Of a stretch of DNA of 32,106 bases, positions 563 to 29,301 are shown piece by piece. The stretch is from a virus (lineage: Duplodnaviria > Caudoviricetes). The DNA lies in the IMG/VR virus record IMGVR_UViG_3300046383_000002, positions 1-32,106 of that record; one strand, given 5' to 3'. The notes beneath the pieces were generated by a model that was given only the letters and a program-made list of their open reading frames with translations, made no database searches and was not told the DNA's origin. The first letter of the stretch is position 1. Each line of letters starts with the position of its first letter. Both the position numbers and the translations under genes were made by a program.

Positions 563-1471
563 GTGGGGCAAATCGTTATTCTCGAAGGGCCTGATGGCTC
601 TGGAAAAACGACCTTGGCTAGGTGTCTGTGTAACGGGTACGGGTTTTCGTACGCCCACACGGGCCCTCCCAAGCCTGACGAAAACGTCCTGCTTGACTAC
701 GCCTTGAAACTGTATCGTGCCAACGAGAGTGGCAAGAATACAGTAATCGACCGACTACATCTTGGGGAAGGAATCTACGGACCCATCATGCGGGGAGTTG
801 ACCTCCTTACTGAGGAAGGTCTCGTCATCCTGCAAAGGATGATAACGGCGTACGACGCAAAGACGGTTATCTGCCTTCCAAAATTCGATGTCGCCTCCCA
901 AAACTGGAGATCGAAACACAACGAATACATCTCCGACGACAGCAAGTACAGACGCATCTACACGGCGTACGCAAAACTTGTTCCGCAGTACGATCACTGG
1001 GATTACAAGGAGGTCGACGTCGAAGACAAGGCAGACTCCCTCCTTACGGTTCCAGTCCCAGAAGATCGTTGCCCGCCAGACGTCGTAGGCTCCCCACACC
1101 CCTGCTTTCTCGTCGTTGGCGAGAAGGCGAATCAAAAAGAACTTGACGTTCCGTGGGTAGACCTGAACCACGGCAGCCACTTCTTATACGAATGTCTCCA
1201 TGAAGCGGGGTTCGTCGAAGAGGAGTTGGCGTTCATCAACGCCCTCAGGATCGACAACACTGAAACCGAAGTGATGAAAGCTTGGGGTGCGCTAGGTTCC
1301 CCGACCCCAATCCTTCTCGGAGGCATCGCGAAGAAACTCTTCTTCGTCGCAGGATTTGACAATGAACCCTACAGCATCCCACACCCAAACTACTGGATGC
1401 GGTTCCACTCCAAACGACGAGCAGAATATGTCGAGAAGCTCAGGAGGGTCAGGTCACTCGTGTATGCATAA
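563..1471 (+). CDS. P-loop dNMP (thymidylate-like) kinase fused to a C-terminal uracil-DNA-glycosylase-like domain
   Basis: N-terminus has Walker A ILEGPDGSGKTT and the dNMP kinase motif VIDR. C-terminus has FLVVGEKAN, GSHFL, FINA, ILLGGIA and IPHPNY, in the order of the UDG-superfamily motifs. Confidence 0.8.
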   Translation: MGQIVILEGPDGSGKTTLARCLCNGYGFSYAHTGPPKPDENVLLDYALKLYRANESGKNTVIDRLHLGEGIYGPIMRGVDLLTEEGLVILQRMITAYDAKTVICLPKFDVASQNWRSKHNEYISDDSKYRRIYTAYAKLVPQYDHWDYKEVDVEDKADSLLTVPVPEDRCPPDVVGSPHPCFLVVGEKANQKELDVPWVDLNHGSHFLYECLHEAGFVEEELAFINALRIDNTETEVMKAWGALGSPTPILLGGIAKKLFFVAGFDNEPYSIPHPNYWMRFHSKRRAEYVEKLRRVRSLVYA

Positions 1472-2291
1472 CCGCGACATCTACACCGCTTGGATAAGCC
1501 TCCTGAACACGCTGATTCGACACGGGAAGGTAACGTCACCTCGAAATTTAAAGACCCTCGAGCTGCTCGGCGTTTCGTTGCGTGTTGACACAGGCCTGGG
1601 AAACATCATCTACCACCCGTATAGAAACCTCAACTATAAGTTCATGGTCGCCGAATGGCTGTGGATTGTTGAGGGCTCGAACCAGGTGAAGGTCCTATCG
1701 CAGTACAACAAAAAGATCGCCCAATTCTCAGACGACGGAGAAACGCTCGCGGGCGCGTACGGACCCAGGATCAACGCGCAGCTTGATTGGGTTCACCACG
1801 TGCTTGTCCTGGAAGACACGCGGCAAGCCGTCATCACAATCTGGACTCCCACGCCAGCGGCCTCAAAAGACATTCCCTGCACAGTCGCTCTTCAATTCCT
1901 GAAACGTGGCGAGTACATGAACCTCATTGTGACAATGAGGTCTTCAGACGCGTGGTTGGGGATCCCGTACGACTTCTACTCGTTCTCGATGCTCCTCAAC
2001 CTGGTGGCTTCGTACCACGGCTGCCAGGTGGGGTTCGTTCAGATGAATCTGGGGTCATCTCACTTGTACGAAACAGACCTCGCTGAGGCTAAGAAGGTCA
2101 TCAATAGTCCTGGTCAGGGGATGGTCGCTTGGTCCCCTAGGGTACCCTATGATGTCCCACTGGATGTCTTTAGGACTCTTCATGACCCGACCCTTGGCCT
2201 CGAAATTTTGCCAGCTCCATGGGGTTTGTATCAGAGAGTCTTAAGAGAAGAGACGAGGAGAGCAGATGCCTTTAAGGTACTCACCGAGTAA
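1464..2291 (+). CDS. Thymidylate synthase superfamily enzyme, predicted dCMP hydroxymethylase/methylase
   Basis: Motifs AEWLW, GAYGPR, DTRQA, DIPC (catalytic Cys), MRSSDAWLGIPYD and GSSHLYE. ATG at 1464 overlaps the kinase stop and is preferred over the track start at 1356. Confidence 0.85.
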   Translation: MHNRDIYTAWISLLNTLIRHGKVTSPRNLKTLELLGVSLRVDTGLGNIIYHPYRNLNYKFMVAEWLWIVEGSNQVKVLSQYNKKIAQFSDDGETLAGAYGPRINAQLDWVHHVLVLEDTRQAVITIWTPTPAASKDIPCTVALQFLKRGEYMNLIVTMRSSDAWLGIPYDFYSFSMLLNLVASYHGCQVGFVQMNLGSSHLYETDLAEAKKVINSPGQGMVAWSPRVPYDVPLDVFRTLHDPTLGLEILPAPWGLYQRVLREETRRADAFKVLTE

Positions 2292-2724
2292 CCGGCCAGA
2301 GTTGCAAGAATATTTCTTGCGCATGCTGGACCTTGTTTCATCTCGGTCGACCTGCGGACGCCGTTCAGTTGGTTCAATCATCACCACCGACAAAGGCCAC
2401 ATCTTAAGCACGGGATACAACGGCGTGCCAAGTACCGTTGCCCACTGCATTGAAGTCCCCTGTTCTGGAATCAATGACCCTTCTGGGGATTCCAGCCGCT
2501 GTTTTGCCGTTCACGCTGAACAAAACGCCTTACTTCAATGCTGGAGACTTGACCTTGCCAGAACAATGTACTGCACTGTCTTCCCATGCTTCATCTGTGC
2601 GAAGATGATTGCAAATACTCAGATCAACAAACTCATTTACCGAGAAGAGTACGCAGATCGAGCAGGGCTCGTTCTCCTAACTGATTTGGGATTTGAGCTT
2701 GTTCATGTCCCCAGATCGACATAA
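2266..2724 (+). CDS. dCMP deaminase
   Basis: STCGRRSVG, TGYNG, HAEQNAL and PCFIC zinc-deaminase motifs. GAGGAG Shine-Dalgarno upstream. Confidence 0.92.
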   Translation: MPLRYSPSNRPELQEYFLRMLDLVSSRSTCGRRSVGSIITTDKGHILSTGYNGVPSTVAHCIEVPCSGINDPSGDSSRCFAVHAEQNALLQCWRLDLARTMYCTVFPCFICAKMIANTQINKLIYREEYADRAGLVLLTDLGFELVHVPRST

Positions 2725-4525
2725 ACAACCAAGCCTGCTAGCGCAAGTCGGGCCCGATACAGGGTGGAGGGCCCCAGAACAACTCCCTGTACTCGATGAT
2801 CGATTCAGGAGACTCGGGTTTGATTCGGAGTGGACTGGCACTGACTGGCTAGGGGATGACGTTCCAGTCGGCTACAGCTTCGCGCTTGAAGACGGTCGTA
2901 AGTTTTATCTTCCTGTGGGACACCAGGGAGGGGGAAACCTCGACAAAGCGTTAGTTCACAGGTGGATGAACCGTGAACTCAAAAACAAAACTCTCGTCAC
3001 ACTCTCTGGCAAAGGCGACATCCAAATGTGTCGGAAAGTTGGAGTTGACCTTGAAGCTCTGGGATGTTCAATTGAAGAAGTACAGTACCAGGCGGCACTC
3101 CTTTCGGATATACGGCGATCCTTCAAAATGGAGGATCTGGCAAATGATTACCTCGGACAAAAGAAAATCGAAATACAGCGTAAAGATATCTGGCAACTTC
3201 CAGCCTACGAAGTCGGACCGTATGCTGAAGAAGACGCTGCCATCACCCTTAGACTTGGCGATTTTCTCGGCGAAAAGATCAAAGAGGAGGAACTCGATAA
3301 GGTCCTCGCGCTCGAGAACTCTCTGATTTACTGCGTTTGCGAGATGGAGCGGAATGGAGTGCCGCTGGATTATGATAAACTTTTTGCGTGGAAGGGTGAG
3401 ATTAAGAAGAGGTCTGATCAGATTATTCTTCTTATTGCTGAAGGTACAGGGCTTAAGGTCAACCCTAACTCCGCGCACGATCTTGCTCAGCTGTTTGGTC
3501 TTCTGGGTATTGGATATAATCGCACTCCTCCTACTGGTAACTTTCCTAACGGGCAACCAAGCTTTACAGATGAATTTCTCGCAACTATTGATAATGAGTT
3601 TGTTCATCTTATCCGTGAAGGTCGGACTCTTGATAGTCTTGATTCTAAATATGTTGGAAAGTACGCGGCAGCGATTAGAAGAGGAATCCTCCACTACCAG
3701 CTTCACCAGCTTAAAGGAGATGAAGCTTACGGAACGATCTCTGGGAGATTCAGCTCGTCGAAGGTAAACATCCAGCAGGTCTTCGACCCCGAGCGTCAAG
3801 CGGATAAAATGGGTCGGAGAGACTACATCATCCGTCAGCTGTTTCTCCCCGGCAAGGGGATGAAGTGGTTGAAGGCTGACGCAAGCCAGATTGAGTTTCG
3901 GCTTTTCGTCCACTATTCAAGAAGTGCTCGACTCATTAAGATTTTCAACGAGACTCCAGATGTTGACTTCCACCAGCAAGTCGCTGACCTGTGCTCCATC
4001 AAAAGGAAGCCTGCGAAGAACATTAATTTCGGCAAGTTGTTTGGAATGGGACGGGACAAAATGGCTCGTGAGCTTGGACTACCAAGATCAGAGTCAGACG
4101 TTCTATTCGCGAAATACGATCAGAAATTCCCCGAGACTAAGAATCTCATGGAAGAAGTCATGGGGGTGGCCCGTAATCGTGGTTACGTTAAAACAATACT
4201 TGGGAGACGAGCGAGATTTCCCAACGGTGAGCGCCTACATTCCGCCCTTAATCGAGTAATCCAGGGATCTGCCGCTGACATCCTCAAGATTAAGTTGCTG
4301 GAACTCTACAACAACCGGAAGGCTCTCGGGTTCTTGATGCGTCTAACCGTTCATGACGAGGTTGGTGGCGATGTCGAGAGCAAGGAGCAAGCAGCCGCTA
4401 TTAAAGAGATGCTCGAGGCTCCTATTCCTGGGTTGGGTATCAGGGTTCCTCTGCTGTGGGATGTCACGGTTGCGAACAACTGGGGAGAAGCTTCGTGGCC
4501 CAAAGAGTGGTCGAAAGCGGCCTAA
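2705..4525 (+). CDS. polA: DNA polymerase family A with 3'-5' exonuclease
   Basis: Exo I FDSE and Exo III YAEED. Polymerase motifs GTISGRFSS, A (ADASQIEFR), B (RKPAKNINFGKLFG), NRVIQGSAAD and C (TVHDE). ATG 2705 chosen over TTG 2693. Confidence 0.95.
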   Translation: MSPDRHKQPSLLAQVGPDTGWRAPEQLPVLDDRFRRLGFDSEWTGTDWLGDDVPVGYSFALEDGRKFYLPVGHQGGGNLDKALVHRWMNRELKNKTLVTLSGKGDIQMCRKVGVDLEALGCSIEEVQYQAALLSDIRRSFKMEDLANDYLGQKKIEIQRKDIWQLPAYEVGPYAEEDAAITLRLGDFLGEKIKEEELDKVLALENSLIYCVCEMERNGVPLDYDKLFAWKGEIKKRSDQIILLIAEGTGLKVNPNSAHDLAQLFGLLGIGYNRTPPTGNFPNGQPSFTDEFLATIDNEFVHLIREGRTLDSLDSKYVGKYAAAIRRGILHYQLHQLKGDEAYGTISGRFSSSKVNIQQVFDPERQADKMGRRDYIIRQLFLPGKGMKWLKADASQIEFRLFVHYSRSARLIKIFNETPDVDFHQQVADLCSIKRKPAKNINFGKLFGMGRDKMARELGLPRSESDVLFAKYDQKFPETKNLMEEVMGVARNRGYVKTILGRRARFPNGERLHSALNRVIQGSAADILKIKLLELYNNRKALGFLMRLTVHDEVGGDVESKEQAAAIKEMLEAPIPGLGIRVPLLWDVTVANNWGEASWPKEWSKAA

Positions 4526-5002
4526 ATGACTGAGGCCCAGTATACGTCGAAGGTCGTTGCATATCTGAAGAATGCTGGAACCGTCACGTTCAAGCATTCT
4601 GACCACTTTACGACTGGGATCCCTGATATCAGTTCTACAAATTGGGACCACACGACTTGGATGGAGGTCAAGATCGTTAACGAAGGGCAAACCATCTTTA
4701 ATCGGGTCACACAGCAGGACAAGGTCCAATTCTTTACGATGGTGGCGTTGGGAAATCTAGGCCGAGCGTTCTACATCGTTAAAAAGAGTACTGAAGTCTT
4801 TATCATTCGACCGGCGACGTTCGTTCATATGTTTGAGGCTGAAGACCGTTCCGACGGGTACATTCGGGATAGGAGTCAATTTGTTGGATCTTTAACCAAT
4901 CACGAGGTTCTTGAAAGCGTATTCAGGAGAAACTTCTCCGCAATTATCCTGCCAACAGACTACTCCACGATCTTTAACCTTACCAAAATGGGGAAGATAT
5001 GA
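4526..5002 (+). CDS. PD-(D/E)xK nuclease (VRR-NUC / Holliday junction resolvase-like)
   Basis: MTEAQ...GIPDI...WMEVK...Q pattern, directly after the polymerase. Confidence 0.75.
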   Translation: MTEAQYTSKVVAYLKNAGTVTFKHSDHFTTGIPDISSTNWDHTTWMEVKIVNEGQTIFNRVTQQDKVQFFTMVALGNLGRAFYIVKKSTEVFIIRPATFVHMFEAEDRSDGYIRDRSQFVGSLTNHEVLESVFRRNFSAIILPTDYSTIFNLTKMGKI

Positions 5003-5580
5003 ACAGGCAACAAACTCTTGTCTACGAGTTCATGAAGAAACACGACCTCACCATGAACATCAAAAACATCCAGCATGACGTAGACGCTTTGTTACGGCTA
5101 CGGCTCGTTGTCGAGGAGCTGGCGGAGCTTATCAAAGCTGTTCACGAGCGAAATCTTGTAGAAGTAGCTGACGGTCTTGGAGATCTGATGTACGTGGTCT
5201 ATGGAACAGGCGTGACCTACGGGTTAAAGATCCACGGCAAAACTCCAGTCAACTTCATGGGTGAACCTACGCTCATGAGAATAGCGCAAGTCGTCGAATG
5301 CCTCGCTGAGGTTACGCAAGCTGTTGGGGACTTCGCGTACGCACTCGAAATGTTCGATCTTCTAGCCCTCGAAACCTCCCTGAGCCTCATCATCGAATCT
5401 TGCATCAACTTCGCAGAAACCACGAACTTGCCAATTGAAGATATCTTTGAAGCGATCCATGAATCGAACATGACGAAGGAAAAGCTTACCGAATTCAACA
5501 AGGGCGGTAAGGGCCAGAACTTCATTCCTGTGAATCTAAAAATTGTTCTCTGGCCTGAGGCGCAGAATGGACTACGTTGA
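4999..5580 (+). CDS. MazG-like all-alpha NTP pyrophosphohydrolase
   Basis: LRLRLVVEELAEL...EVADGLGDLMYVVYG and IHESNMTK. ATGA overlap with the previous gene. Confidence 0.85.
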   Translation: MNRQQTLVYEFMKKHDLTMNIKNIQHDVDALLRLRLVVEELAELIKAVHERNLVEVADGLGDLMYVVYGTGVTYGLKIHGKTPVNFMGEPTLMRIAQVVECLAEVTQAVGDFAYALEMFDLLALETSLSLIIESCINFAETTNLPIEDIFEAIHESNMTKEKLTEFNKGGKGQNFIPVNLKIVLWPEAQNGLR

Positions 5581-5924: not shown

Positions 5925-6128
5925 GTGGGTCAAAGACCTTCTGACGCGTTGTACTGGGAAATCTGCGAGTTTGCCAGTCGACTTGGTAAGGCAGATGTTC
6001 GAACTCACCCTGGGGACGTATTGAAGTGGGGACAGCTTATAGCGGTGTGTTGGGCCGAGTTCGACCTTAAGATGAGGGCGGGTGATGATCTTCCTACTGC
6101 GTGGAAGGTTACGAGAACTGACCACTAG
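5925..6128 (+). CDS. Hypothetical protein, last gene of the + strand arm
   Basis: GTG start 1 nt after the preceding stop, GGAG upstream, 67 aa. No recognisable motif. Confidence 0.5.
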   Translation: MGQRPSDALYWEICEFASRLGKADVRTHPGDVLKWGQLIAVCWAEFDLKMRAGDDLPTAWKVTRTDH

Positions 6129-6564
6129 GCGTTAGGTCAGGAGGCTTAAGCTTGTCCGTTGACCGCGGGGGTCGGGTGGCGGTCAAGCCTGGTGGACGAA
6201 CGCGGCCGAAGTAGAATCCGATTACCAGGCCTACGATCGTCCACCACTCCGGTGGGAGTCGGGCGGTATCGTCCTTAATGTACATCGACAAGGCGAGCAC
6301 GCCCGTGCAAGTCGTTACGACGACGAAAACTGCGATTACAGACTGCGTGTATTCCCAGACGTTGTTGAGTCGTCGTTCAGAGGAGGCGGGGGATAGATCC
6401 TTCCTGAGCTGTTGTTGACCAGCAAGAATCGCGGCTTCCACGCTCTTGATTGCTAGCTTAAGCTCTAGAGTCGTCTGATCCTTTAGAGGATCCGCGGCGG
6501 CGGTTCCTACAGCCTCTCCTGTTGTATCCACGGCGCGCAACTTTCCTGGAAGCTTCCACATCAA
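6109..6564 (-). CDS. Putative holin / two-TM membrane protein
   Basis: Two hydrophobic segments (SVIAVFVVVTTCTGVLALSMYI and WWTIVGLVIGFYFG) and a basic C-terminus. Last gene of the late arm. Confidence 0.55.
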   Translation of the reverse strand: MMWKLPGKLRAVDTTGEAVGTAAADPLKDQTTLELKLAIKSVEAAILAGQQQLRKDLSPASSERRLNNVWEYTQSVIAVFVVVTTCTGVLALSMYIKDDTARLPPEWWTIVGLVIGFYFGRVRPPGLTATRPPRSTDKLKPPDLTPSGQFS

Positions 6565-6981
6565 CTACGTCTTACCTTTCAACGCAAGGTAAGCTTTTCT
6601 CGCCAGGATAAATTTCCGGTTCGTTCCTCCCTTATCCGGGTGAGCATCTAACATATCCTGTTTCAACTTCGCCAATTTCTTCCGCTGGAGCCGGGCCCAC
6701 CGCTGCCGGTGGTGGGACAGGGTCTTACAGGCCTTGCATTTCCGCTTCGTACTCCCCGGGGCGATATAGGTATTGGCCGGGGTGAAGAGATGGCCATGGA
6801 TGCATTTAGTTCGTTTCGAACCCTTGCGCTTCCGGTTGGCCCGGACAATCTGCTCTAGGCCTGCGGGCGTGAACCCGCTGGGCCACTGGGCCTTGCGCCG
6901 GGCCATCATGTGCCGGGCAGCGGTGGATCTCCGGGAATCGCCCTTGCGAATAACCCCTTCTCCAACTAATTTCCGACTCAT
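6565..6981 (-). CDS. Basic protein with an HNH-associated-type zinc finger and a C-terminal J-domain-like (HPD) segment
   Basis: TKCIHGHLFTPANTY...RKCKAC, followed by LKQDMLDAHPDKGGTNRKFILARKAY. Confidence 0.65.
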   Translation of the reverse strand: MSRKLVGEGVIRKGDSRRSTAARHMMARRKAQWPSGFTPAGLEQIVRANRKRKGSKRTKCIHGHLFTPANTYIAPGSTKRKCKACKTLSHHRQRWARLQRKKLAKLKQDMLDAHPDKGGTNRKFILARKAYLALKGKT

Positions 6982-6987
6982 GGTTCA

Positions 6988-8136
6988 TCAGAGTTCGCCT
7001 TGGATGATGTAGGCGGTGTTCGCGCTACCATCGCCCGGCAACGTCAGAATTCCGTTTGTTCCCAACGAGCCTTCAAGAAACAATTGGCGGGTAACGGGGT
7101 TGTAGACCCTGAATCGCATCGGCTGGCGCGCCTTGAATTCCGCTTGATTCAGGACTCCGCAGGGCATGCATACGAAGCTCGACCCCGACATCGCCGCATA
7201 GTTCTTGTTGACTCCCCAATCTGATCCGATGCCGTCTCCCCAAAATTTCTGAGCCGGTAGCGGGTGAACGGGATTCGGCGGTACCCAGTTGTCGTTCGCC
7301 TTCGTCCAGTCCTCGATGCCATCAGGGCAGAGGGTATGCACCTTGCTGACGGCGTCATAGATCGCTTCGGCGTTCGGGGTTTCCCACACGTTCGCCTGGC
7401 GGACCATCCCACCGTGCGGGTTGGTGTTCGGGTAACCGTAGATACCGTTGGCGTTGTGCAGCACGTAAGCTCCCTTCCCGCATAGGATACCAAGAGCACG
7501 ATCCATTGCGAGGCGAAGGGGGTCTGAGCACTGGCAGACGCTAGAAGCGGGGCCCATGGGTTCGTTGGCGTTGATGAGAACTTTCTTATACTTGAAGTCC
7601 CAGTTCTGCCGAACGAACTTCCACATGTAGTCGTTGTAGCTGCGCTGACCATGTACTGTGCCCTTCGTGTACGGCCCGCTGTTCAGGTACTCATCGAACT
7701 TCGGATCTTGCGGATCCGGCGGACTTGAGCGAGCGACCAGATGAGGCAGTTGTCCGCGGATGATCTGCGCCATGTCGCGTTGCTGCTGTACCGTGTTCGG
7801 CCACGTCGAGTAGTCCTCGTTGACCATCTCGAGCCCAAGCACGGTATGCACGCGGGGCTTCACCGCGTCAACGATCTTCTGAGCCAGCATCCTGTGGTCG
7901 ACTGCCCCGCCACCGTGGCACGTAATCTCAGCCCTCATCCTGAACGTCGTATAGATCGTGTCGAGGAACTCCCCTAGCACCTGAACATAGTCAGGCGCGT
8001 TGGGGTCGATATGTTCAAACGTTCCCAGGATTCTGATGTAGTCGAGGCCGTGTTTCGAAAGCCAGTCGACGTTCTGCAGCAAGCGATCACGCTCGGTCCT
8101 GAACCCCGAGAGAGACCAGAACAGTGTACCGCCCAT
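6988..8136 (-). CDS. Glycoside hydrolase-like TIM barrel (clan GH-A-like), probably the C-terminal part of a -1 frameshift fusion starting at 8486
   Basis: LDYIRILG, LEMVNE (candidate acid/base) and NANEPMG (candidate nucleophile). The frame stays open upstream of ATG 8136 with GH-like RAEGRTWADDTG but has no start codon there. Confidence 0.6.
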   Translation of the reverse strand: MGGTLFWSLSGFRTERDRLLQNVDWLSKHGLDYIRILGTFEHIDPNAPDYVQVLGEFLDTIYTTFRMRAEITCHGGGAVDHRMLAQKIVDAVKPRVHTVLGLEMVNEDYSTWPNTVQQQRDMAQIIRGQLPHLVARSSPPDPQDPKFDEYLNSGPYTKGTVHGQRSYNDYMWKFVRQNWDFKYKKVLINANEPMGPASSVCQCSDPLRLAMDRALGILCGKGAYVLHNANGIYGYPNTNPHGGMVRQANVWETPNAEAIYDAVSKVHTLCPDGIEDWTKANDNWVPPNPVHPLPAQKFWGDGIGSDWGVNKNYAAMSGSSFVCMPCGVLNQAEFKARQPMRFRVYNPVTRQLFLEGSLGTNGILTLPGDGSANTAYIIQGEL

Positions 8137-8171
8137 CGGTCTCCAACGCCCGGTGTCGTCCGCCCACGTGC

Positions 8172-8223
8172 GGCCTTCAGCGCGCGGAACTCCAAGCCGC
8201 GCTGAAGACCTTACACGAAAGGG
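8172..8223 (-). promoter_or_regulatory. Programmed -1 ribosomal frameshift signal
   Basis: Heptamer C CCU UUC (8223-8217) in frame, spacer GUGUAA, then a 13-bp stem GGUCUUCAGCGCG / CGCGCUGAAGGCC (8210-8172). Confidence 0.75.
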
Positions 8224-8486
8224 GTAACGACGACGTTCACCTCTTGCTCTCCCCGGACTTCGTACGCATCGCCCCAGACGTTGCCCACGTAACGAATCTT
8301 CGGATCCGTAACCACCAGCGTAACGCGATTCCCCTCAGCCGACGTTCCGGTGTTGACGTCAGCGTACCCTCCGCCGTCGGTCGACCGAGAGTAGCTTTGC
8401 CCCGTAATGAGGTCATTTGCCACCACCCACATGTCTGGCACCGGATTTCCTTTGTCGTCCGTAACCGTAACCTTGAACAAACCCAT
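8211..8486 (-). CDS. Small Ig-like (carboxypeptidase-regulatory/prealbumin-like) beta-sandwich protein
   Basis: KVTVTDDKGNPV...STDGGGYA pattern. Strong AGGAGG Shine-Dalgarno. Confidence 0.65.
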   Translation of the reverse strand: MGLFKVTVTDDKGNPVPDMWVVANDLITGQSYSRSTDGGGYADVNTGTSAEGNRVTLVVTDPKIRYVGNVWGDAYEVRGEQEVNVVVTPFV

Positions 8487-8495
8487 AATCCCCTC

Positions 8496-9770
8496 CTAAA
8501 GCGGTCTTAAGTTAGTGAGCTGAGCATCTGGTACATACTTCTGTAAAGAAGCGAGAGTATCCCCGTAGATGTTGTGCCACGTATATGGAGTCTTATCGGG
8601 ATATCTCCAATCGTCCAACACAAGTCCAGTAGGCGGAGTAGAACCGTCAAAGTAGCCGATGGATTTAAGGTTTGCCCCCGAGACCACGATTCCCTCAATG
8701 GTAATGTTCCTAGGCCCGTTCCTAAAGAAGAAGCACCGACCATGACCACCCGTTATTCCTTTCGGGTCAATCATGGAGAACGCAAATTTCTTGATAACGA
8801 TGTTCTGAAGCATTCCACTAGGATGTTCGCTATCAGTTCCTAACATCGTCACACATCCACCAGCGATAGCTCCAGTACAATCTTCAATCAAGGCATTCTC
8901 GACGCTAGCCGTAGGATCCTTGCCACTTTGATTTCTCGGGGTAAGAACGATGAGATAGCCTCCCTGACCTTCAGCAATACCTGCACCTTCAAGGTGACAA
9001 TTGGACATGTCGAATCCAGCGACGTTCTTGAGTTCGAGGGAACACTTCCGCTGCCACAATTTTCCAGTTACAGGATCTGTGTCGTAGTAGTTGGGATTCT
9101 TGACAAGGTCGCAATTAATGATTCGAATGCTTCGAGGTTTGAGATCAGGGTTTTGATCTTCTCCACCAGCCATAAAACTCTGGCCAGCCCCTGACAAGTA
9201 ACAATCACTGATCAGCAATCCTGGTTCCGCCATGCCAGATACAAAAACAGCCTGTGTATCCTGACCTACTTTCTTGATGTTGTCGATATAGCAGCGATCA
9301 ATGTACCCGCTAGTATTCATGTAAATGCCTCGTTTGTTTCCACGAACGGGGTCACCCATGATACAGCATTGAGAGAAAGCTGTATTCTTAATACCTGTTT
9401 GACAGAATACAATGTCATCAGAAACAACGTCAGAAAAGTGAAGTCCAGCAAACAACGTATTATCGGCTGAAACAAGCATTCCAGCCGTGAATTTCGGAAG
9501 AATATCGTTAGGGCTTGCGCGGCCAGCAAAAGCGATTTCCTGAGCCCGCAATTCTACCGATCGAGTTATCTTGAGAATCTTCGGATAAACAAGATCATTA
9601 CTAATTAGAATTGTGTCGGCCGTTCCAGCTAACTCTTCATCGAGTTCTTCAGGGGTAAAGACAACGGCGGGTTCAGGAGGTGTAGGGGTGCCGTTAGGGA
9701 TTTCGTCGCGAACTTCGGTGATGAGCTGGATTGCCTCGTCGAGCTTTTGGCGCATCTCGTCATTCGTCAT
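8496..9770 (-). CDS. Right-handed beta-helix (pectin-lyase-fold) protein, candidate depolymerase/tailspike
   Basis: Repeated short strands with Asn/Cys ladders (IDRCYIDN, ISDCYLSG, IINCDL, MSNCHLEG, IEDCTG). GAGGGG precedes ATG 9770. Confidence 0.65.
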   Translation of the reverse strand: MTNDEMRQKLDEAIQLITEVRDEIPNGTPTPPEPAVVFTPEELDEELAGTADTILISNDLVYPKILKITRSVELRAQEIAFAGRASPNDILPKFTAGMLVSADNTLFAGLHFSDVVSDDIVFCQTGIKNTAFSQCCIMGDPVRGNKRGIYMNTSGYIDRCYIDNIKKVGQDTQAVFVSGMAEPGLLISDCYLSGAGQSFMAGGEDQNPDLKPRSIRIINCDLVKNPNYYDTDPVTGKLWQRKCSLELKNVAGFDMSNCHLEGAGIAEGQGGYLIVLTPRNQSGKDPTASVENALIEDCTGAIAGGCVTMLGTDSEHPSGMLQNIVIKKFAFSMIDPKGITGGHGRCFFFRNGPRNITIEGIVVSGANLKSIGYFDGSTPPTGLVLDDWRYPDKTPYTWHNIYGDTLASLQKYVPDAQLTNLRPL

Positions 9771-9827
9771 GACCCCTCGCAATACTTTTGGTAAACCCTG
9801 CGTGACCCTAGCGAAATTTTGAAATGT

Positions 9828-18139: not shown

Positions 18140-18327
18140 TACGTTTGATGTTTAAGCCGCTCGAACTCCATCTCTTCCTGTTCCTCGTTCATGACGTTGA
18201 TGACCTCATTCACAACGGACATGGGGGTCGCCATAAGTTCTTGCCAGCTCCAACCCATATACTTCATTATGTAGATATCACTTCGACGTCTTCTTTTTGC
18301 TCCCGAGCTTTCTTCTTCGTTTTTTTT
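18139..18327 (-). CDS. -1 frame extension of the tail assembly chaperone (gpGT, about 183 aa from 18689)
   Basis: Slippery A AAA AAA at 18327-18321. The -1 frame reads ...SDIYIMKYMGWSWQELMATPMSVVNEVINVMNEEQEE...HQT* and its stop overlaps the tape measure ATG. Confidence 0.8.
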   Translation of the reverse strand, partial: KKNEEESSGAKRRRRSDIYIMKYMGWSWQELMATPMSVVNEVINVMNEEQEEMEFERLKHQT

Positions 18328-18689
18328 AGCTCGATGACTTTCATGATATGTTGAAAGATGGCGTCATTGATCTCATCGAAGGTTTCGAGATCAAGCGACC
18401 TGATCGCTTCAACGGTAACGGGAACAGCAACGATTTTCCCCTCACGATTCTTATTCGTGAAACTCCAGTCAACAAGCCAAAGATGGGTTCGAAGAACCTC
18501 ATAATTCGACCAGTCAACTCTATCACGAACTTCTTCTTTGTCACCAATCATGACAACGGTTGGAATTAAAGCAAGAGTATCTTGCTTGCGCTGATCACCA
18601 GCATCAAGCTCGCTCTTTACCTCTATCCAATCACCATCAGAAATGTCGATGCGGGTAGTTCCCGGGGTGACGAATCTGAATCTTCCCAC
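18267..18689 (-). CDS. Tail assembly chaperone (gpG)
   Basis: LVDWSF...TVEAIRSLD motif, position upstream of the tape measure, and the slippery site. Confidence 0.8.
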   Translation of the reverse strand: MGRFRFVTPGTTRIDISDGDWIEVKSELDAGDQRKQDTLALIPTVVMIGDKEEVRDRVDWSNYEVLRTHLWLVDWSFTNKNREGKIVAVPVTVEAIRSLDLETFDEINDAIFQHIMKVIELKKTKKKAREQKEDVEVIST

Positions 18690-18992: not shown

Positions 18993-19393
18993 TACGTCGA
19001 GAGTAAGGCACCCTGTCCAGTTGCCTTGAAGCTTGAGCTCGCCTTGGTCGTCGTCGAACCTTCAGCGATTTTACCAAGCTGAATCCACGCCGTTCCGCTA
19101 TAGAACTGCGCAGGGACGTCAAATCGAGGATACAGGTAAAGGGTTTGCGGAACGGTGTCGATTGACGCCGTCCAGAGAGCCTTACTTCCGATGTCAAAGT
19201 TGCCTGCGAAGGTTCCTGTCCAACCTTGCAGACCTTTGACGAACTGTTTCCAGGAATTGACCAATGGCGTAGTATCAACGATCGCCATATCGAAGTCAAT
19301 TGACCAAGAAAGTTGTTCCCCGATAGGGATGGCGACACCACCGCCAGTAGGGGACATGTAGATAACCGCGCTCTTACCATGAATGTTGGGCAT
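18992..19393 (-). CDS. Tail tube (major tail) protein
   Basis: IHGKSAVIY...SWSID...VDTT...WKQFVKGLQGWTGTFAG...LYLYP...YSGTAW. ATG 19393 has an AAGGTGGAG SD, so the track's longer start at 19567 was rejected. Confidence 0.85.
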   Translation of the reverse strand: MPNIHGKSAVIYMSPTGGGVAIPIGEQLSWSIDFDMAIVDTTPLVNSWKQFVKGLQGWTGTFAGNFDIGSKALWTASIDTVPQTLYLYPRFDVPAQFYSGTAWIQLGKIAEGSTTTKASSSFKATGQGALLST

Positions 19394-20393
19394 TCGGATT
19401 CTCCACCTTTGCGTAATCGCAAATCGTTTTAACGACCTCCACCGCCCGGTGATCGAAGGTACATTCCTGAACCCACTCGTATGCTTCTTGAGCAAGTTCA
19501 GATCGTTTTTCTGGAAGTTGTAGATAATACCTAATTGTAGCTTCCCAATCTCTGGGATCTTTAACATACGGAACGCTGGAGTTGAACACGTTTACAAGTT
19601 CAGGTCTATAATCAGAAATCTGAAATGATTCACAAGCGGCGATTTCGTATGCCCGGGGACCCAAACTATACGCCTGGTTATCGGCGTAAGCTCGATGAAA
19701 ATTGATACAGATTTTCGAGCTTGAATAAAGTTCAGCGACCTTATCGTTAGGAACGACCGACTGATCTAGAAACGGGTAAAGATTGCTATCAGGTCCAATA
19801 TTCGGCCAGATTCCACACAGCTTGAGGCGAATATCTACCCAGTTAATATCTTCAAGAACCTTTTGTCTTTCAGGCCATCCTGAACCAACCATCATTACGT
19901 CATACTGAATCGGAGTATTAACGTGGTAGTGGATCTTGGGATCGTACGAATGAGGAACATACGTCCACCCAAACTTCTTAGCAGAGAATCGATCATTCGT
20001 CATGATCAGCATCTCAGGGTAGGTAGACGCCCACTCCTTTTGATATTCGTCCTCATACGGTGATTCGGTGAACAGTACCACCGTCGGGATTTTTGCCTTC
20101 TTTAACAACCACAAACTAATGGGGTGGAGGTTTAACCCTGAAACAACGAAAACGACATCTGCCTCAAAGTAAAGGGCCTCGTTCAAGATGTTTTCACTAG
20201 CAAACCTCGAAAGCAAAGCTACATCGTTTGAGATGTCAGGAGGAAGCGCCAATTTATGGTATGAAGTTCGTTGTTGAAGCGCGTAATCCTTGATGTTCTC
20301 TTCTCCGAAGATCTTGGAGAACGCGCTACGGTAGCCTCTCGCCACGTCCCCGATGGACATCTTAACGATCGGCCACACAAACAGGAGCTTCAC
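19374..20393 (-). CDS. GT-B glycosyltransferase (CgeB / Glyco_trans_1_2-like)
   Basis: FTESPYE, HSYDPKIH, YDVMMVGS...ER, YSSSKICINFHR, RAYEIAAC..FQISD and TFDHRA. Confidence 0.85.
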   Translation of the reverse strand: MKLLFVWPIVKMSIGDVARGYRSAFSKIFGEENIKDYALQQRTSYHKLALPPDISNDVALLSRFASENILNEALYFEADVVFVVSGLNLHPISLWLLKKAKIPTVVLFTESPYEDEYQKEWASTYPEMLIMTNDRFSAKKFGWTYVPHSYDPKIHYHVNTPIQYDVMMVGSGWPERQKVLEDINWVDIRLKLCGIWPNIGPDSNLYPFLDQSVVPNDKVAELYSSSKICINFHRAYADNQAYSLGPRAYEIAACESFQISDYRPELVNVFNSSVPYVKDPRDWEATIRYYLQLPEKRSELAQEAYEWVQECTFDHRAVEVVKTICDYAKVENPNAQHSW

Positions 20394-20542
20394 CGACGTT
20401 CGATTTCAGGAACAGGATTTGGTAACGGCACTTTTTCCTGCGGGGTCAATTGTACTTTCAGTGCATCTCGCTCCGCTTTTACGATAGCAAGCTGCAACAT
20501 CAAGTCCCCAAGCATTTGCCTGATATAGTCTTCCGGAGTCAT
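20390..20542 (-). CDS. Small coiled-coil protein (50 aa, not in the ORF track), possible fibre chaperone
   Basis: MTPEDYIRQMLGDLMLQLAIVKAERDALK... with AAGGA SD. Its stop overlaps the glycosyltransferase GTG. Confidence 0.65.
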   Translation of the reverse strand: MTPEDYIRQMLGDLMLQLAIVKAERDALKVQLTPQEKVPLPNPVPEIERR

Positions 20543-20550
20543 AGTTTTCC

Positions 20551-23205
20551 TTAAGGTTCAATCGCGATTTGAATCGCCGCGCCTGTATTGAACTGCACCA
20601 TCAGACGAGTCTTGCCCGCGCCGTTGTCTTCACACCACATAGCCATCCGGTCCGCTGGGGGCGTCGGTGGCGCGCCCGTGCGTTCCTGAAAGCGTATCGA
20701 ACTGCTCGTGCCAGCCATATCCAACTGACTCTGGATGTTAACCATCGCGCTATAAAAGGTGCCCATGCTGTAGACGACCCACCCGCCTTGCCCAATCTGC
20801 ACATCACCAAAACTGTTCGTGCAAATCAGGTTGTGGTCACCGGTCCCGGCGGGGTTTCGGAAGTTGATCCCCGTTGTGAGCGGTAACCGAATTAACCCAG
20901 TTTGTGCCGCGCTCGTTCCAACGGTCAAGGTCCCCACCGTATGACCAGCAAGCGCCGAATCATCAGCTAGTCGGGTTTCGAGAGTTGCGCCGTTGCGCTT
21001 GATCGCTGGGGCCGAAGCCGTTACGCCACCAAACTGAAGACGATCAAACCCAGACTCTGCCCAATTACTGATTCGCAAGCATCCAGCCACAGGAGCCCTG
21101 ATAATCGTCCGATTATTGAACCCGATATACATCGGGGCGCTATCAGTTCCAGCTCCAACAACGACAGTCGAAGAAGTTGTTAAGGTACCGCATTCCAGCG
21201 GGGCATAATCAGAATCATTTGCCAGGCGAGCTTGAAGAATCGTATTACTTCGCTTCAGCGCTGGAAACGAAGCGGAAGTTCCACCGAATTGAAGACGATC
21301 AAAACTTGTAGCTGCGCCATCGTACACGGTTAATACGCCAGTACTCGGAGAATTAAAGTACGCACGCGTACCTATACCGAGCCAGCCGTTCGCGCCGGCC
21401 GCAATCGTTCCTGTCAACGAACCAGAAATACCAGACGATCCTACCAGCGTCAAGCCATCACAAGTCAATAGCCCGGTGTTCATTTTTACGCCAACGTCAA
21501 CTTCATTTGAGGCGTTTACCTTAAGTATGTTGATGTCAGCTGTTCCTGCAGCATTTCGACCTGTCATGTAGACGTTATTGACCCCGAAAGCAATATTTCG
21601 ACACCGGAAATCAGCAAACGCGCTATCGTCAGCAAGTTTAACCTGAAGTTCAGCAGAAGATCGTTTCAATGCTGGAAAACTCGACGTCTGGCCACCAAAC
21701 TGTACACGGTCAAAAGTCGTCCGGTTACTGTTTGATAAAGTCAAAACACCGTCTGTTTGCATCCACAAACTGCCACGAACACCATCTCCACCAAAATTAA
21801 TCCCGTCCATCGGACGTGATGCATGGCAACCAACTTCTATTTGTTGCAAACACGACGCCCGATGAAACCAGAGATACCCACCATCTTGTCCAGTAACCGG
21901 CATATCTGGACCGCAGCCAATTTCTGCGTGATCCCCGTAGTTCATCGGTGCGTAGCCAGTTCCAGCCCACCGCAAAAACCGTCGATCAGGACCTGTGCCT
22001 TCTGGATAAGTGGCTACAGTCCCCCAAATCCAACGATCATCTTCAATTTTGATACCATCAGCACGAAATCGTGCAGCAAGAAGACTCCCATCCGTCCCTG
22101 CTCGAATATCGACAACAGATGTTGCATCACCCGCACCACTCGTCGACTTCAACGTCAACTTTGACGTTGCTCCTGAACCTCCCTGAACCGTTCCAACCGT
22201 TAAAGGATCAGGAATTCCAGCACCGCCACCAGACAATATGGCGACCTCACCATCACCAAACATGACTTTCAACTGTCCGTCTGCTTGGTCGACGTAGATC
22301 ATCGCCTTACCGGCTACTGGAGTCGGAGGCGTCACACCATCGAATACAACGCTCGCAACACGACCATCAATTGCGACCGGCCACGGCTCGACACCAGTAG
22401 TTCTAAAAATCGGACTGACTGGCGTAGAATTTCCCGCCCAGTAAACCGTCGGAAATGAATCAGCCCCAAATGCATAGAGTCCTTGCTGACCGTCTTCACC
22501 ATCGGCGAGAGCGCGCACGTCACCCGTTGTGATTCCGGTAAAGGGCCCTGACTGATACGCAAACGTACCTGTACCAGGAACTGACCACGACGCCAGATAC
22601 GTCGTCGCAGCAAATACAGGAACAGAAGCAGGGAACATCACTGTGTTGAACCCAGCTACCAATGACGACGCCGCAATTGCGGCTAGAAGCGTCCCTGTCG
22701 ATGACCAGATTTGAACACGATAACTTGATACCGGCCCCATTGGCGTATTGATAAAGAATCGAACACCAAGCAATTCTCCTGGAACAGTAAATCGATATTT
22801 CATGCCCATCGTGTAGATCGAACCGGGCGAACCCCCAATAAACGGCGGCGTATAGTTAACAAACTGCTGCGGACCTGGAGGCGCCCCAGCCACTTTCGGC
22901 CCGTACAAAGTTCCGGTTTGCGTATCAAGATAAAAGTCGCCAATATTACCAGTACCAACTGTAGGTACGCCCGCACCGTCTAAAATCGCTTGAACAGAAC
23001 CATCTCCATCTCCACCACCTTCACTTGACCACGAAACTCCATCATTCGAAGCTGAATCTTTGATGAGATAATAACCGTCAGGCTCAGCTCCGCCCAAGAC
23101 GCGGGTCAGGAGGTTCGAAACAGCGTTCCAGTCCGACGGACGAAGCTTCGTTACGTCGGGACCGTCGGGTTTACCAGAAACAAAGAGTGGAGGGGTAAGG
23201 CTCAT
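20551..23205 (-). CDS. Virion fibre protein with a DUF4082-like domain and internal repeats
   Basis: GxGVP...GDFYLDT...LYGPK motif, a DUF4082-like segment (MGMKYRF...GVRFF...IWSSTGTLLA) and three FDRxQFGG repeats. Confidence 0.75.
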   Translation of the reverse strand: MSLTPPLFVSGKPDGPDVTKLRPSDWNAVSNLLTRVLGGAEPDGYYLIKDSASNDGVSWSSEGGGDGDGSVQAILDGAGVPTVGTGNIGDFYLDTQTGTLYGPKVAGAPPGPQQFVNYTPPFIGGSPGSIYTMGMKYRFTVPGELLGVRFFINTPMGPVSSYRVQIWSSTGTLLAAIAASSLVAGFNTVMFPASVPVFAATTYLASWSVPGTGTFAYQSGPFTGITTGDVRALADGEDGQQGLYAFGADSFPTVYWAGNSTPVSPIFRTTGVEPWPVAIDGRVASVVFDGVTPPTPVAGKAMIYVDQADGQLKVMFGDGEVAILSGGGAGIPDPLTVGTVQGGSGATSKLTLKSTSGAGDATSVVDIRAGTDGSLLAARFRADGIKIEDDRWIWGTVATYPEGTGPDRRFLRWAGTGYAPMNYGDHAEIGCGPDMPVTGQDGGYLWFHRASCLQQIEVGCHASRPMDGINFGGDGVRGSLWMQTDGVLTLSNSNRTTFDRVQFGGQTSSFPALKRSSAELQVKLADDSAFADFRCRNIAFGVNNVYMTGRNAAGTADINILKVNASNEVDVGVKMNTGLLTCDGLTLVGSSGISGSLTGTIAAGANGWLGIGTRAYFNSPSTGVLTVYDGAATSFDRLQFGGTSASFPALKRSNTILQARLANDSDYAPLECGTLTTSSTVVVGAGTDSAPMYIGFNNRTIIRAPVAGCLRISNWAESGFDRLQFGGVTASAPAIKRNGATLETRLADDSALAGHTVGTLTVGTSAAQTGLIRLPLTTGINFRNPAGTGDHNLICTNSFGDVQIGQGGWVVYSMGTFYSAMVNIQSQLDMAGTSSSIRFQERTGAPPTPPADRMAMWCEDNGAGKTRLMVQFNTGAAIQIAIEP
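20953..21714 (-). repeat. Three dispersed 32-aa repeats in the fibre
   Basis: FDRxQFGGxxxSxPAxKRxxxxLxxxLAxDS at 21714-21619, 21303-21208 and 21048-20953. Confidence 0.85.
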
Positions 23206-29265: not shown

Positions 29266-29301
29266 ACAACTAGTTGAGAAACCCCCCAGCTTCCCAGACA
29301 T

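Follow-up and report, generated by a model that had tools for sequence, protein, structure and literature searches.

Known Recoded Genes and the Locus Under Study

Immunoglobulin (Ig)-like extensions that are added by frameshifting are described for T3 gp10, Lactobacillus phage A2 and Listeria phages A118, A500 and PSA (PMC5009743). Here we report on a locus in a soil virus of the Caudoviricetes (IMG/VR record IMGVR_UViG_3300046383_000002), a linear record of 32,106 nt with an estimated completeness of 52%, the whole of which was analyzed and is referred to below as the window. At this locus, a small open reading frame (ORF) predicted to encode a beta-sandwich domain overlaps, in the -1 frame, a coding sequence for a protein resembling a glycoside hydrolase, and a candidate frameshift site lies at the boundary of the two. 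As with the phage Ig-like extensions, one late gene would give a short and a long product, and the family as a whole makes use of -1, +1 or in-frame joins. The parts are exchanged, however: in those phages an Ig-like unit is appended to a major capsid or tail protein, which forms the short product, whereas in the window the short product is the sandwich and the extension a TIM-barrel enzyme. A further difference is that some relatives of the hydrolase carry sites that would truncate. The indifference to frame among Ig-like extensions has been ascribed to the chance rescue of out-of-frame domains (PMC5009743), but this explanation does not cover truncating sites in genes that are already in frame.

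The locus also shares features with several other recoded genes. Like lambda gpG/gpGT (PMC5009743), it has a slip site shortly before a small ORF ends, where a -1 shift would set the ratio of short to long product, but the proteins are different, its position is not between the major tail and tape-measure genes, and the window has a separate site of the G/GT type at approximately 18321–18327. Truncating -1 frameshifts are described for the Escherichia coli genes copA, giving CopA(Z), and dnaX (PMC6771820; bioRxiv 10.1101/2025.10.02.679949). Their arrangement of a -1 slip, an immediate stop and a freed N-terminal domain is that of six relatives of the window's gene (L002, L083, L013, L014, L020, and L037), although copA and dnaX are cellular genes with one polarity, while the hydrolase family shows both and the window itself extends. 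The +1 site of release factor 2 consists of CUU UGA C with a Shine-Dalgarno (SD) sequence 3 nt upstream (PMC5009743); one relative, L016, a single 2.4-kb contig, has GAGG, 3 nt and CTT TGA C at the same domain boundary, but there it would join a fascin-like domain to the hydrolase and not regulate release factor 2. Finally, two-polypeptide endolysins are encoded by one gene that gives a full-length enzyme and a short isoform, some of them forming heteromers (PMC9430671; PMC7098653). The output of the window's gene possibly resembles theirs. In endolysins of this kind, the short isoform arises from an in-frame start within the gene, and the enzymes cleave peptidoglycan and belong to phages of Gram-positive bacteria, whereas the short product of the window is the N-terminal, zero-frame ORF; with the non-catalytic domain at the N-terminus, only a frameshift or a stop could release it.

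A literature search covering titles and abstract openings found no description of such an arrangement. The programmed -1 frameshift is very likely real, and what is new is its setting, together with an apparent pattern of recoding that recurs across the family at a single domain boundary.

Candidate Slip Site, Predicted Hairpin, and Reading Frames

The zero-frame ORF of 91 amino acids (8211–8486, minus strand) is predicted to encode the short product. It begins at ATG 8486, preceded by an SD-like AGGAGG (8492–8497), and ends in ACC CCT TTC GTG TAA. Lying in the zero frame is the slippery heptamer C CCU UUC (8217–8223), which has the X XXY YYZ pattern; this is followed by the 6-nt spacer GTGTAA, including the zero-frame stop UAA (8211–8216), and by a predicted stimulatory hairpin (8172–8210) with a 13-bp stem, whose arms lie at 8210–8198 and 8184–8172 and hold one G-U pair. 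The open stretch of the -1 frame runs from 8334 to its stop at 6988 and has ATG 8136 as its earliest ATG, GTG or TTG codon, and slippage would give a fusion of 90 + 409 = 499 amino acids. Among these are the elements from which the first-pass annotation of the sequence had proposed a frameshift into a hydrolase ORF whose N-terminal part has no start of its own, and all that it had described, including the computed length of the fusion, are present.

The heptamer C_CC.U_UU.C is reported to give high-level frameshifting in E. coli, where U_UU.Y tetramers are shift-prone and rank second among tetramers (PMC4066793). The predicted free energy of the hairpin is -25.4 kcal/mol (p = 0.013 against 300 synonymous-codon shuffles, for structures starting 5–7 nt past the site). 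When the 55 nt past each of the 80 XXXYYYZ sites on both strands of the window were compared, those following C CCU UUC were the most stable at -30.6 kcal/mol, the runner-up reaching -23.1 kcal/mol. The whole 101-nt region is less striking (z = -1.96): of 200 dinucleotide shuffles, 6 folded equally well. In coding terms, the linker falls on the 5' arm of the hairpin, while the hydrolase domain has its conserved beginning on the 3' arm. The junction combines three of the features by which programmed -1 frameshifting is recognized, namely a heptamer in the zero frame, a predicted structure within 5–9 nt and conserved -1 coding that lacks a start. Judged by these features, programmed -1 frameshifting very likely occurs here, and the proposal of the first-pass annotation gains support from a conserved domain that begins ahead of ATG 8136, from in-frame fusions and from the boundary sites of relatives, all of which are described below.

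Two other readings of these bases were considered and set aside. A transcription terminator was rejected, as the hairpin is without a U-tail and scans for promoters and terminators did not rise above chance. Transcriptional slippage was judged unlikely, the runs of C and T being just 4 and 3 bases long, with the hairpin downstream of them.

Start of the Hydrolase Domain

The first-pass annotation had cautioned that a GGAG 4 nt before ATG 8136 could permit the hydrolase to be initiated independently. The GGAG is indeed there (8134–8144 with its spacer and ATG, minus strand), but the start is the weaker candidate in view of what lies before it. A conserved N-terminal segment of the hydrolase (8137–8199, minus strand) stands upstream of ATG 8136 without a standard in-frame start codon. 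The invariant residues R8, G10, D21, G24, and P28 of the query (alignment A1) all precede M29, the residue encoded by ATG 8136, and a start there would therefore truncate the domain. Residues 11–30 of the hydrolase model are predicted with a local confidence (pLDDT) of approximately 90, and 140 of the 150 best representatives align from query residue 21 or earlier.

It is accordingly very improbable that the locus consists of two separate genes, with a hydrolase that is initiated from ATG 8136 or from some non-standard codon upstream. Such an organization would have the GGAG in its favor, as well as an in-frame CTG 28 codons upstream of the slip site and the fact that the first strand of the barrel is kept with a start at ATG 8136. 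The family also includes stand-alone hydrolases, and in L034 a separate small gene abuts the hydrolase start. These stand-alone proteins, however, have their starts upstream of the conserved segment, at 15–25 codons ahead of the conserved Gly. A start at ATG 8136 would cost five invariant residues and well-predicted N-terminal strands, the position of M29 is occupied by Phe or Leu in 9 of 9 homologs, and the codon is situated within a small predicted hairpin.

The Predicted Extension: A Glycoside Hydrolase-Like Protein

The -1 frame extension of 409 amino acids (6988–8217, minus strand) is predicted to fold into a (beta/alpha)8 TIM barrel followed by a C-terminal beta-sandwich (pLDDT 83, predicted template modeling score 0.87). 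A Foldseek search of the PDB gave GH140 and GH5 enzymes as the top structure matches (8t9w, 5msy, 3kzs, 4qfu, and 9gpe; E-values of 6e-14 to 1e-12), with sequence identities of 9–13%. Searches by sequence against Pfam, PHROG and the PDB found no match that names the protein, the best PDB sequence being a GH53 enzyme at an E-value of 0.16, and this tells against the assignment. The hydrolase is, by sequence, an unnamed family, of which 619 representatives were gathered.

Enzymes of clan GH-A have an Asn-Glu pair after strand 4 and a Glu after strand 7 of their (beta/alpha)8 barrel. When strands were taken from the predicted model, N134-E135 followed strand 4 and E220, in an Asn-Glu-Pro motif, followed strand 7. 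Glu135 (7816–7818, minus strand) is the predicted acid/base and Glu220 (7561–7563, minus strand) the predicted nucleophile, and both, like N134, are invariant in alignments A1 and A2. GH5 barrels of this clan and GH140 enzymes share with the window's protein the predicted barrel, the C-terminal sandwich and the Glu positions, set against the low identity and the lack of a Pfam match. All of the invariant residues of the family are present in the window. On the predicted fold and these residues, with which the label given by the first-pass annotation agrees, there is strong reason to expect from the extension a retaining glycosidase activity of the clan GH-A type.

Elsewhere in the family, the hydrolase is preceded by fascin-like, NBR1-Ig, lectin-like or helical domains, or by a short leader only. 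Many homologs have leaders of the lipoprotein or amphipathic type, and the cellular copies have leaders resembling signal peptides. Searches with the single protein returned nothing from viral contigs or cultured phage records.

The Predicted Short Product: A Beta-Sandwich Domain

The first-pass annotation had called the 91-amino-acid product an Ig-like unit. It is predicted to be a beta-sandwich of the CarboxypepD_reg (transthyretin-like) type, so that it is Ig-like only in a loose sense. This identification rests on structure models: the predicted model of the ORF matched predicted models of CarboxypepD_reg domains with template modeling scores of 0.81–0.85 over 84–88 of its 91 residues. By sequence, Pfam gave Big_1 (E-value 2e-4) and CarboxypepD_reg (E-value 0.004), both under the cut-off; the CarboxypepD_reg profile (PF13620) scored 17.9 bits against a curated cut-off of 32.3. 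The domain has no signal peptide. It is homologous to the N-terminal domains of in-frame hydrolase fusions, namely L020 and L037/P0036 (E-value 3e-7 for P0036).

Further homologs of the domain were few. A search among proteins of similar length recovered the ORF itself alone, and a profile built from three sequences retrieved, among longer proteins, just the two known fusions at meaningful E-values and, in a viral search, one locus that was already known. Pairwise comparison with P0001–P0004 and P0008 gave no significant match. There was also no match in PHROG, and the capsid and tail proteins are encoded elsewhere in the window.

Apparent Recoding of the Same Boundary in Relatives

To compare the junction across the family, 83 unique loci with an intact junction were analyzed. 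The counts leave out duplicates, loci cut before the junction (L005, L010, L011, L015, L017, L021, and L026), those without a hydrolase match (L153, L160, and L168–L182) and L217 (genome G780). Four of the 83 have no in-frame start for the hydrolase and are not cut by a contig end: the window, L001, L003, and L016. In L001 and L003, the zero frame ends in GGT TTT TAG with the hydrolase in the -1 frame, and the last zero-frame domain is homologous to the in-frame N-terminal domains of L002 and L083. In L016, a fascin-like ORF ends in GAGG, 3 nt and CTT TGA C with the hydrolase in the +1 frame, a junction that matches the release factor 2 signal at the level of sequence.

A site of the opposite kind was identified in genes that are already fused in frame. 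A U_UUY tetramer at the domain end, no more than 15 codons ahead of the conserved Gly and followed after 0–2 codons by a -1 stop, occurs in 6 of 18 in-frame fusions of the sandwich type and in 0 of 61 other loci, against a background of 9 in 32,721 codons. The Fisher p-value for this enrichment is 7e-5, which overstates the evidence, as the loci were classed by eye and the limit of 15 codons was fixed once the first cases had been seen. The six loci are those named above for their likeness to copA and dnaX, and they represent about four lineages. No such tetramer was found in 28 further loci (27 from cellular genomes), in six of which the conserved Gly could be placed only roughly. In four of the six, C CCT TTY lies exactly 9 nt upstream of the Gly codon, in genes where CCT makes up 5–19% of the Pro codons. 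Hairpins beginning 6 nt past the Phe codon were found in L002 (p = 0.010), L083 (p = 0.003), L020 (p = 0.033), and L037 (p = 0.020). All pairs of the 11-bp stem shared by L020 and L037 are preserved, two of them through compensatory changes, and the stem scores better than slid controls. In every truncating relative the cut falls at the domain boundary, and all six of these in-frame genes are leaderless, while none of 11 leader-bearing genes has a site. The genes beside L013 and L014 look cellular, with a beta-eliminating lyase at L014 and, by eye, a probable tRNA gene at L013; truncating sites may also occur outside active phages.

Taken together, three modes of recoding appear at this one boundary, as read from the sequences: -1 extension, an RF2-like +1 shift and -1 truncation of in-frame fusions. 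A quick fallback tree, in which L083 fills just 20% of the columns, places the site-bearing loci scattered among site-less ones, with both polarities within one supported clade. These observations argue that both products are selected, and not that a split gene has been rescued by chance, a conclusion we consider probable, because extension and truncation would yield the same two proteins and because some in-frame relatives carry a site that would remove the enzyme.

The truncating sites also bear on the possibility that the frameshift is real but serves solely to limit the dose of enzyme, with the free domain as a by-product. Low-level transframe products are described as dosing devices, for example in insertion sequence transposases (PMC4066793), and such a role would fit a hydrolase that is harmful to the host. 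In six in-frame relatives, however, the site would truncate, which makes a poor limiter of enzyme and a direct route to the free domain, and each cut coincides with a domain boundary. We consider dosing alone to be a rather unlikely explanation.

A broken gene, produced by a recent indel, a small inverted duplication or an assembly error and yielding no fusion, would account for the same break in frame. The window is one unreplicated contig and most homologs are in frame. Furthermore, its linker is 14 nt longer than the 9-nt linkers of relatives, and the extra bases are an inverted copy of downstream sequence, as a template switch might leave. Against this, the single Logan contig that spans the whole stretch (mean depth 13.6) has 0 differences and there is no variant contig. 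The break coincides with a high-efficiency heptamer and with the best hairpin of the window, the same heptamer is found at the same boundary in four relatives, and the hydrolase is intact with every invariant residue kept. The stem is imperfect at the DNA level and is made perfect as RNA by the G-U pair. A broken gene is therefore quite improbable.

A number of observations weigh against programmed frameshifting with two selected products. The Logan contig, which leaves unchanged the bases that the first-pass annotation wished to see confirmed, comes from the one run found to cover the stretch and is probably the source of the window sequence, so that the agreement is not independent confirmation; no RNA data set containing the stretch was listed. 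The hairpins of L001 (p = 0.26), L003 (p = 0.32), L013 (p = 0.71), and L014 (p = 0.90) are not significant. L001/L003 and L020/L037 hold the tetramer only, and tetramers are reported to be weaker than the best heptamers in E. coli (PMC4066793). The link between site and missing leader has exceptions: in at least seven leaderless fusions known as proteins only, Phe is absent from the 15 residues that precede the Gly (P0041, P0056, P0095, P0096, P0100, P0137, and P0152). The nearest hydrolase relatives of the window carry other N-terminal domains, and the one for which DNA is available, L009, is without a site. Shift-prone boundary sites do occur in nine other loci of the 83, mostly with the opposite polarity, but searches with the short ORF, its profile and the junction pattern found no close relative with the exact junction of the window, the pattern scan giving 15 loci, none with the hydrolase. 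The first-pass annotation had looked to homologs for in-frame fusions, a conserved heptamer and a covarying stem. In-frame fusions were found, and C CCT TTY lies at the boundary in four relatives, but the covariation between L020 and L037, a comparison of two sequences, is no better than a shuffle control (132 of 500). To this must be added the manner of classing noted with the p-value above.

Proposed Mechanism, Role, and Host

The best overall explanation, and one that is quite probable, is that frameshifting yields two products, a free sandwich domain and a sandwich-hydrolase fusion. The Pro and Phe tRNAs would be on CCU UUC when the ribosome stalls at the hairpin, and a fraction would re-pair on CCC UUU and continue to give the 499-amino-acid fusion. 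Most ribosomes would stop two codons later and release the free 91-amino-acid domain, probably in excess. In relatives with a truncating site, it would be the free domain that arises from this slip. The fixed ratio of short product to fusion that the first-pass annotation had envisaged probably does not hold throughout the family, since the polarity is reversed in some relatives.

As to the enzyme, the leaders of its homologs and its neighboring genes for membrane proteins point to action on the host envelope; from a reading of ORF lists, the hydrolase gene is often found between tail-fiber-like genes and genes for membrane proteins or lipoproteins. It could cleave a surface glycan of the host, probably a member of the Vicinamibacterales, and so aid the escape of progeny at lysis, a role for and against which we see the case as evenly balanced. 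No other lysin was detected by Pfam and PHROG scans of 34 ORFs of the window, the record being incomplete. In L152 and L034, a conventional lysin is encoded beside the hydrolase gene, which speaks against the hydrolase as sole endolysin and makes an accessory enzyme more likely. More tentatively, the free domain might partner the fusion as a scaffold or binding subunit and take the place of the membrane leader of other members.

The main rival to action at the envelope accepts the frameshift but places the products in the virion, where many free domains would decorate the tail or head and a few would carry the hydrolase as a depolymerase for adsorption. The gene closes the structural operon, following the tail-fiber genes and a beta-helix protein, and the site-bearing versions are without export leaders. 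In the phage frameshifts already described, a virion protein is made in two forms (PMC5009743), and most putative exopolysaccharide-degrading enzymes of Erwinia and Pantoea phages are reported to be tail-associated (PMC13532396). The lipoprotein-type or amphipathic leaders of many homologs would nevertheless be needless for virion proteins, and the gene is found between terminase and portal genes (L001), among non-structural genes (L004) and between genes for membrane proteins (L016). A virion location is a possibility that we hold to be doubtful.

The host is probably a bacterium of the Vicinamibacterales. The family was found in 55 of 401 genomes sampled from the order of genome G002, labeled Vicinamibacterales, compared to 3 of 401 across its phylum, and the structural neighbors of the short domain, like those of the upstream gene, are mainly from Acidobacteriota. 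Copies of the family are also found in Archangiaceae and Oligoflexia.

Neighboring Genes and Other Features of the Window

Pfam and PHROG scans identified genes for the portal, protease, scaffold, major capsid, connector, major tail, and tail-fiber proteins on the minus strand, and for thymidylate synthase, dCMP deaminase, and a family A polymerase on the plus strand. The locus of the sandwich and hydrolase forms the end of the late operon, approximately 10 kb downstream of the major tail gene. Outside the recoding unit, its upstream neighbor (8496–9782, minus strand) encodes a predicted right-handed beta-helix protein, as indicated by an Atlas feature and structure matches, with no match in Pfam or PHROG. 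This protein has a short N-terminal helix and a proline-rich linker, its nearest predicted structures are mostly from Acidobacteriota, and it is possibly a polysaccharide lyase or depolymerase, which would make it a second glycan-acting enzyme beside the hydrolase. Downstream lies a gene for an HNH-related protein (6565–6981, minus strand; PHROG HNH matches over residues 43–124) with a C-terminal HPD motif, which we take to recall a J-domain. The final gene of the late operon (6109–6564, minus strand) encodes a membrane protein by hydropathy, possibly a holin.

In L002 (7502–8149), L001 (7248–7841), and L161 (3805–4403), a lipoprotein-like gene and a small helical gene without Pfam or PHROG matches are found as a conserved pair downstream of the hydrolase, and these possibly represent an unnamed lysis or spanin-like pair. 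Radical SAM genes occur upstream of the hydrolase in L072 and L083, and DUF483-related genes in L072 and L037. The zero-frame protein of L001 (4622–6010, 462 amino acids) has a large unannotated N-terminal region before the sandwich, with a possible internal Met.

The site at approximately 18321–18327 mentioned above is an A AAA AAA close to the end of an ORF (18267–18689, minus strand) with the -1 frame open past the stop. It is likely a tail-chaperone G/GT frameshift and probably the first of the two frameshifts counted by the first-pass annotation. The heptamers GGGTTTC and GGGAAAT, near 29284 and 27395 (minus strand), have strong hairpins 12 and 14 nt downstream, which may be intergenic hairpins or terminators. 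A glycosyltransferase-like gene (PF13524) and a gene for a DUF4082 protein lie between those for the tail terminator and the major tail protein (19374–23205, minus strand), a setting that hints at virion glycosylation. A cluster on the plus strand (563–5580) encodes thymidylate kinase-like, thymidylate synthase, dCMP deaminase, family A polymerase, and MazG-like pyrophosphatase proteins, and could be a sign of a modified pyrimidine.

Implications for the Family and its Hosts

It is possible, though speculative, that the family tunes the ratio of free domain to fusion by repeated recoding, its polarity flipped by small indels near a retained C CCU UUY, and that the products form a hetero-oligomeric envelope-degrading enzyme as a mirror of the two-polypeptide endolysins, with recoding in place of the leader. 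The occurrence of both polarities in one family makes possible a direct test of whether the two-product output is selected, and the family supplies natural stimulators of both polarities. Split genes of this type are truncated by gene callers and their short products overlooked. The substrate of the hydrolase may, in turn, reveal the surface glycans of soil Acidobacteriota, which are abundant but barely cultured.

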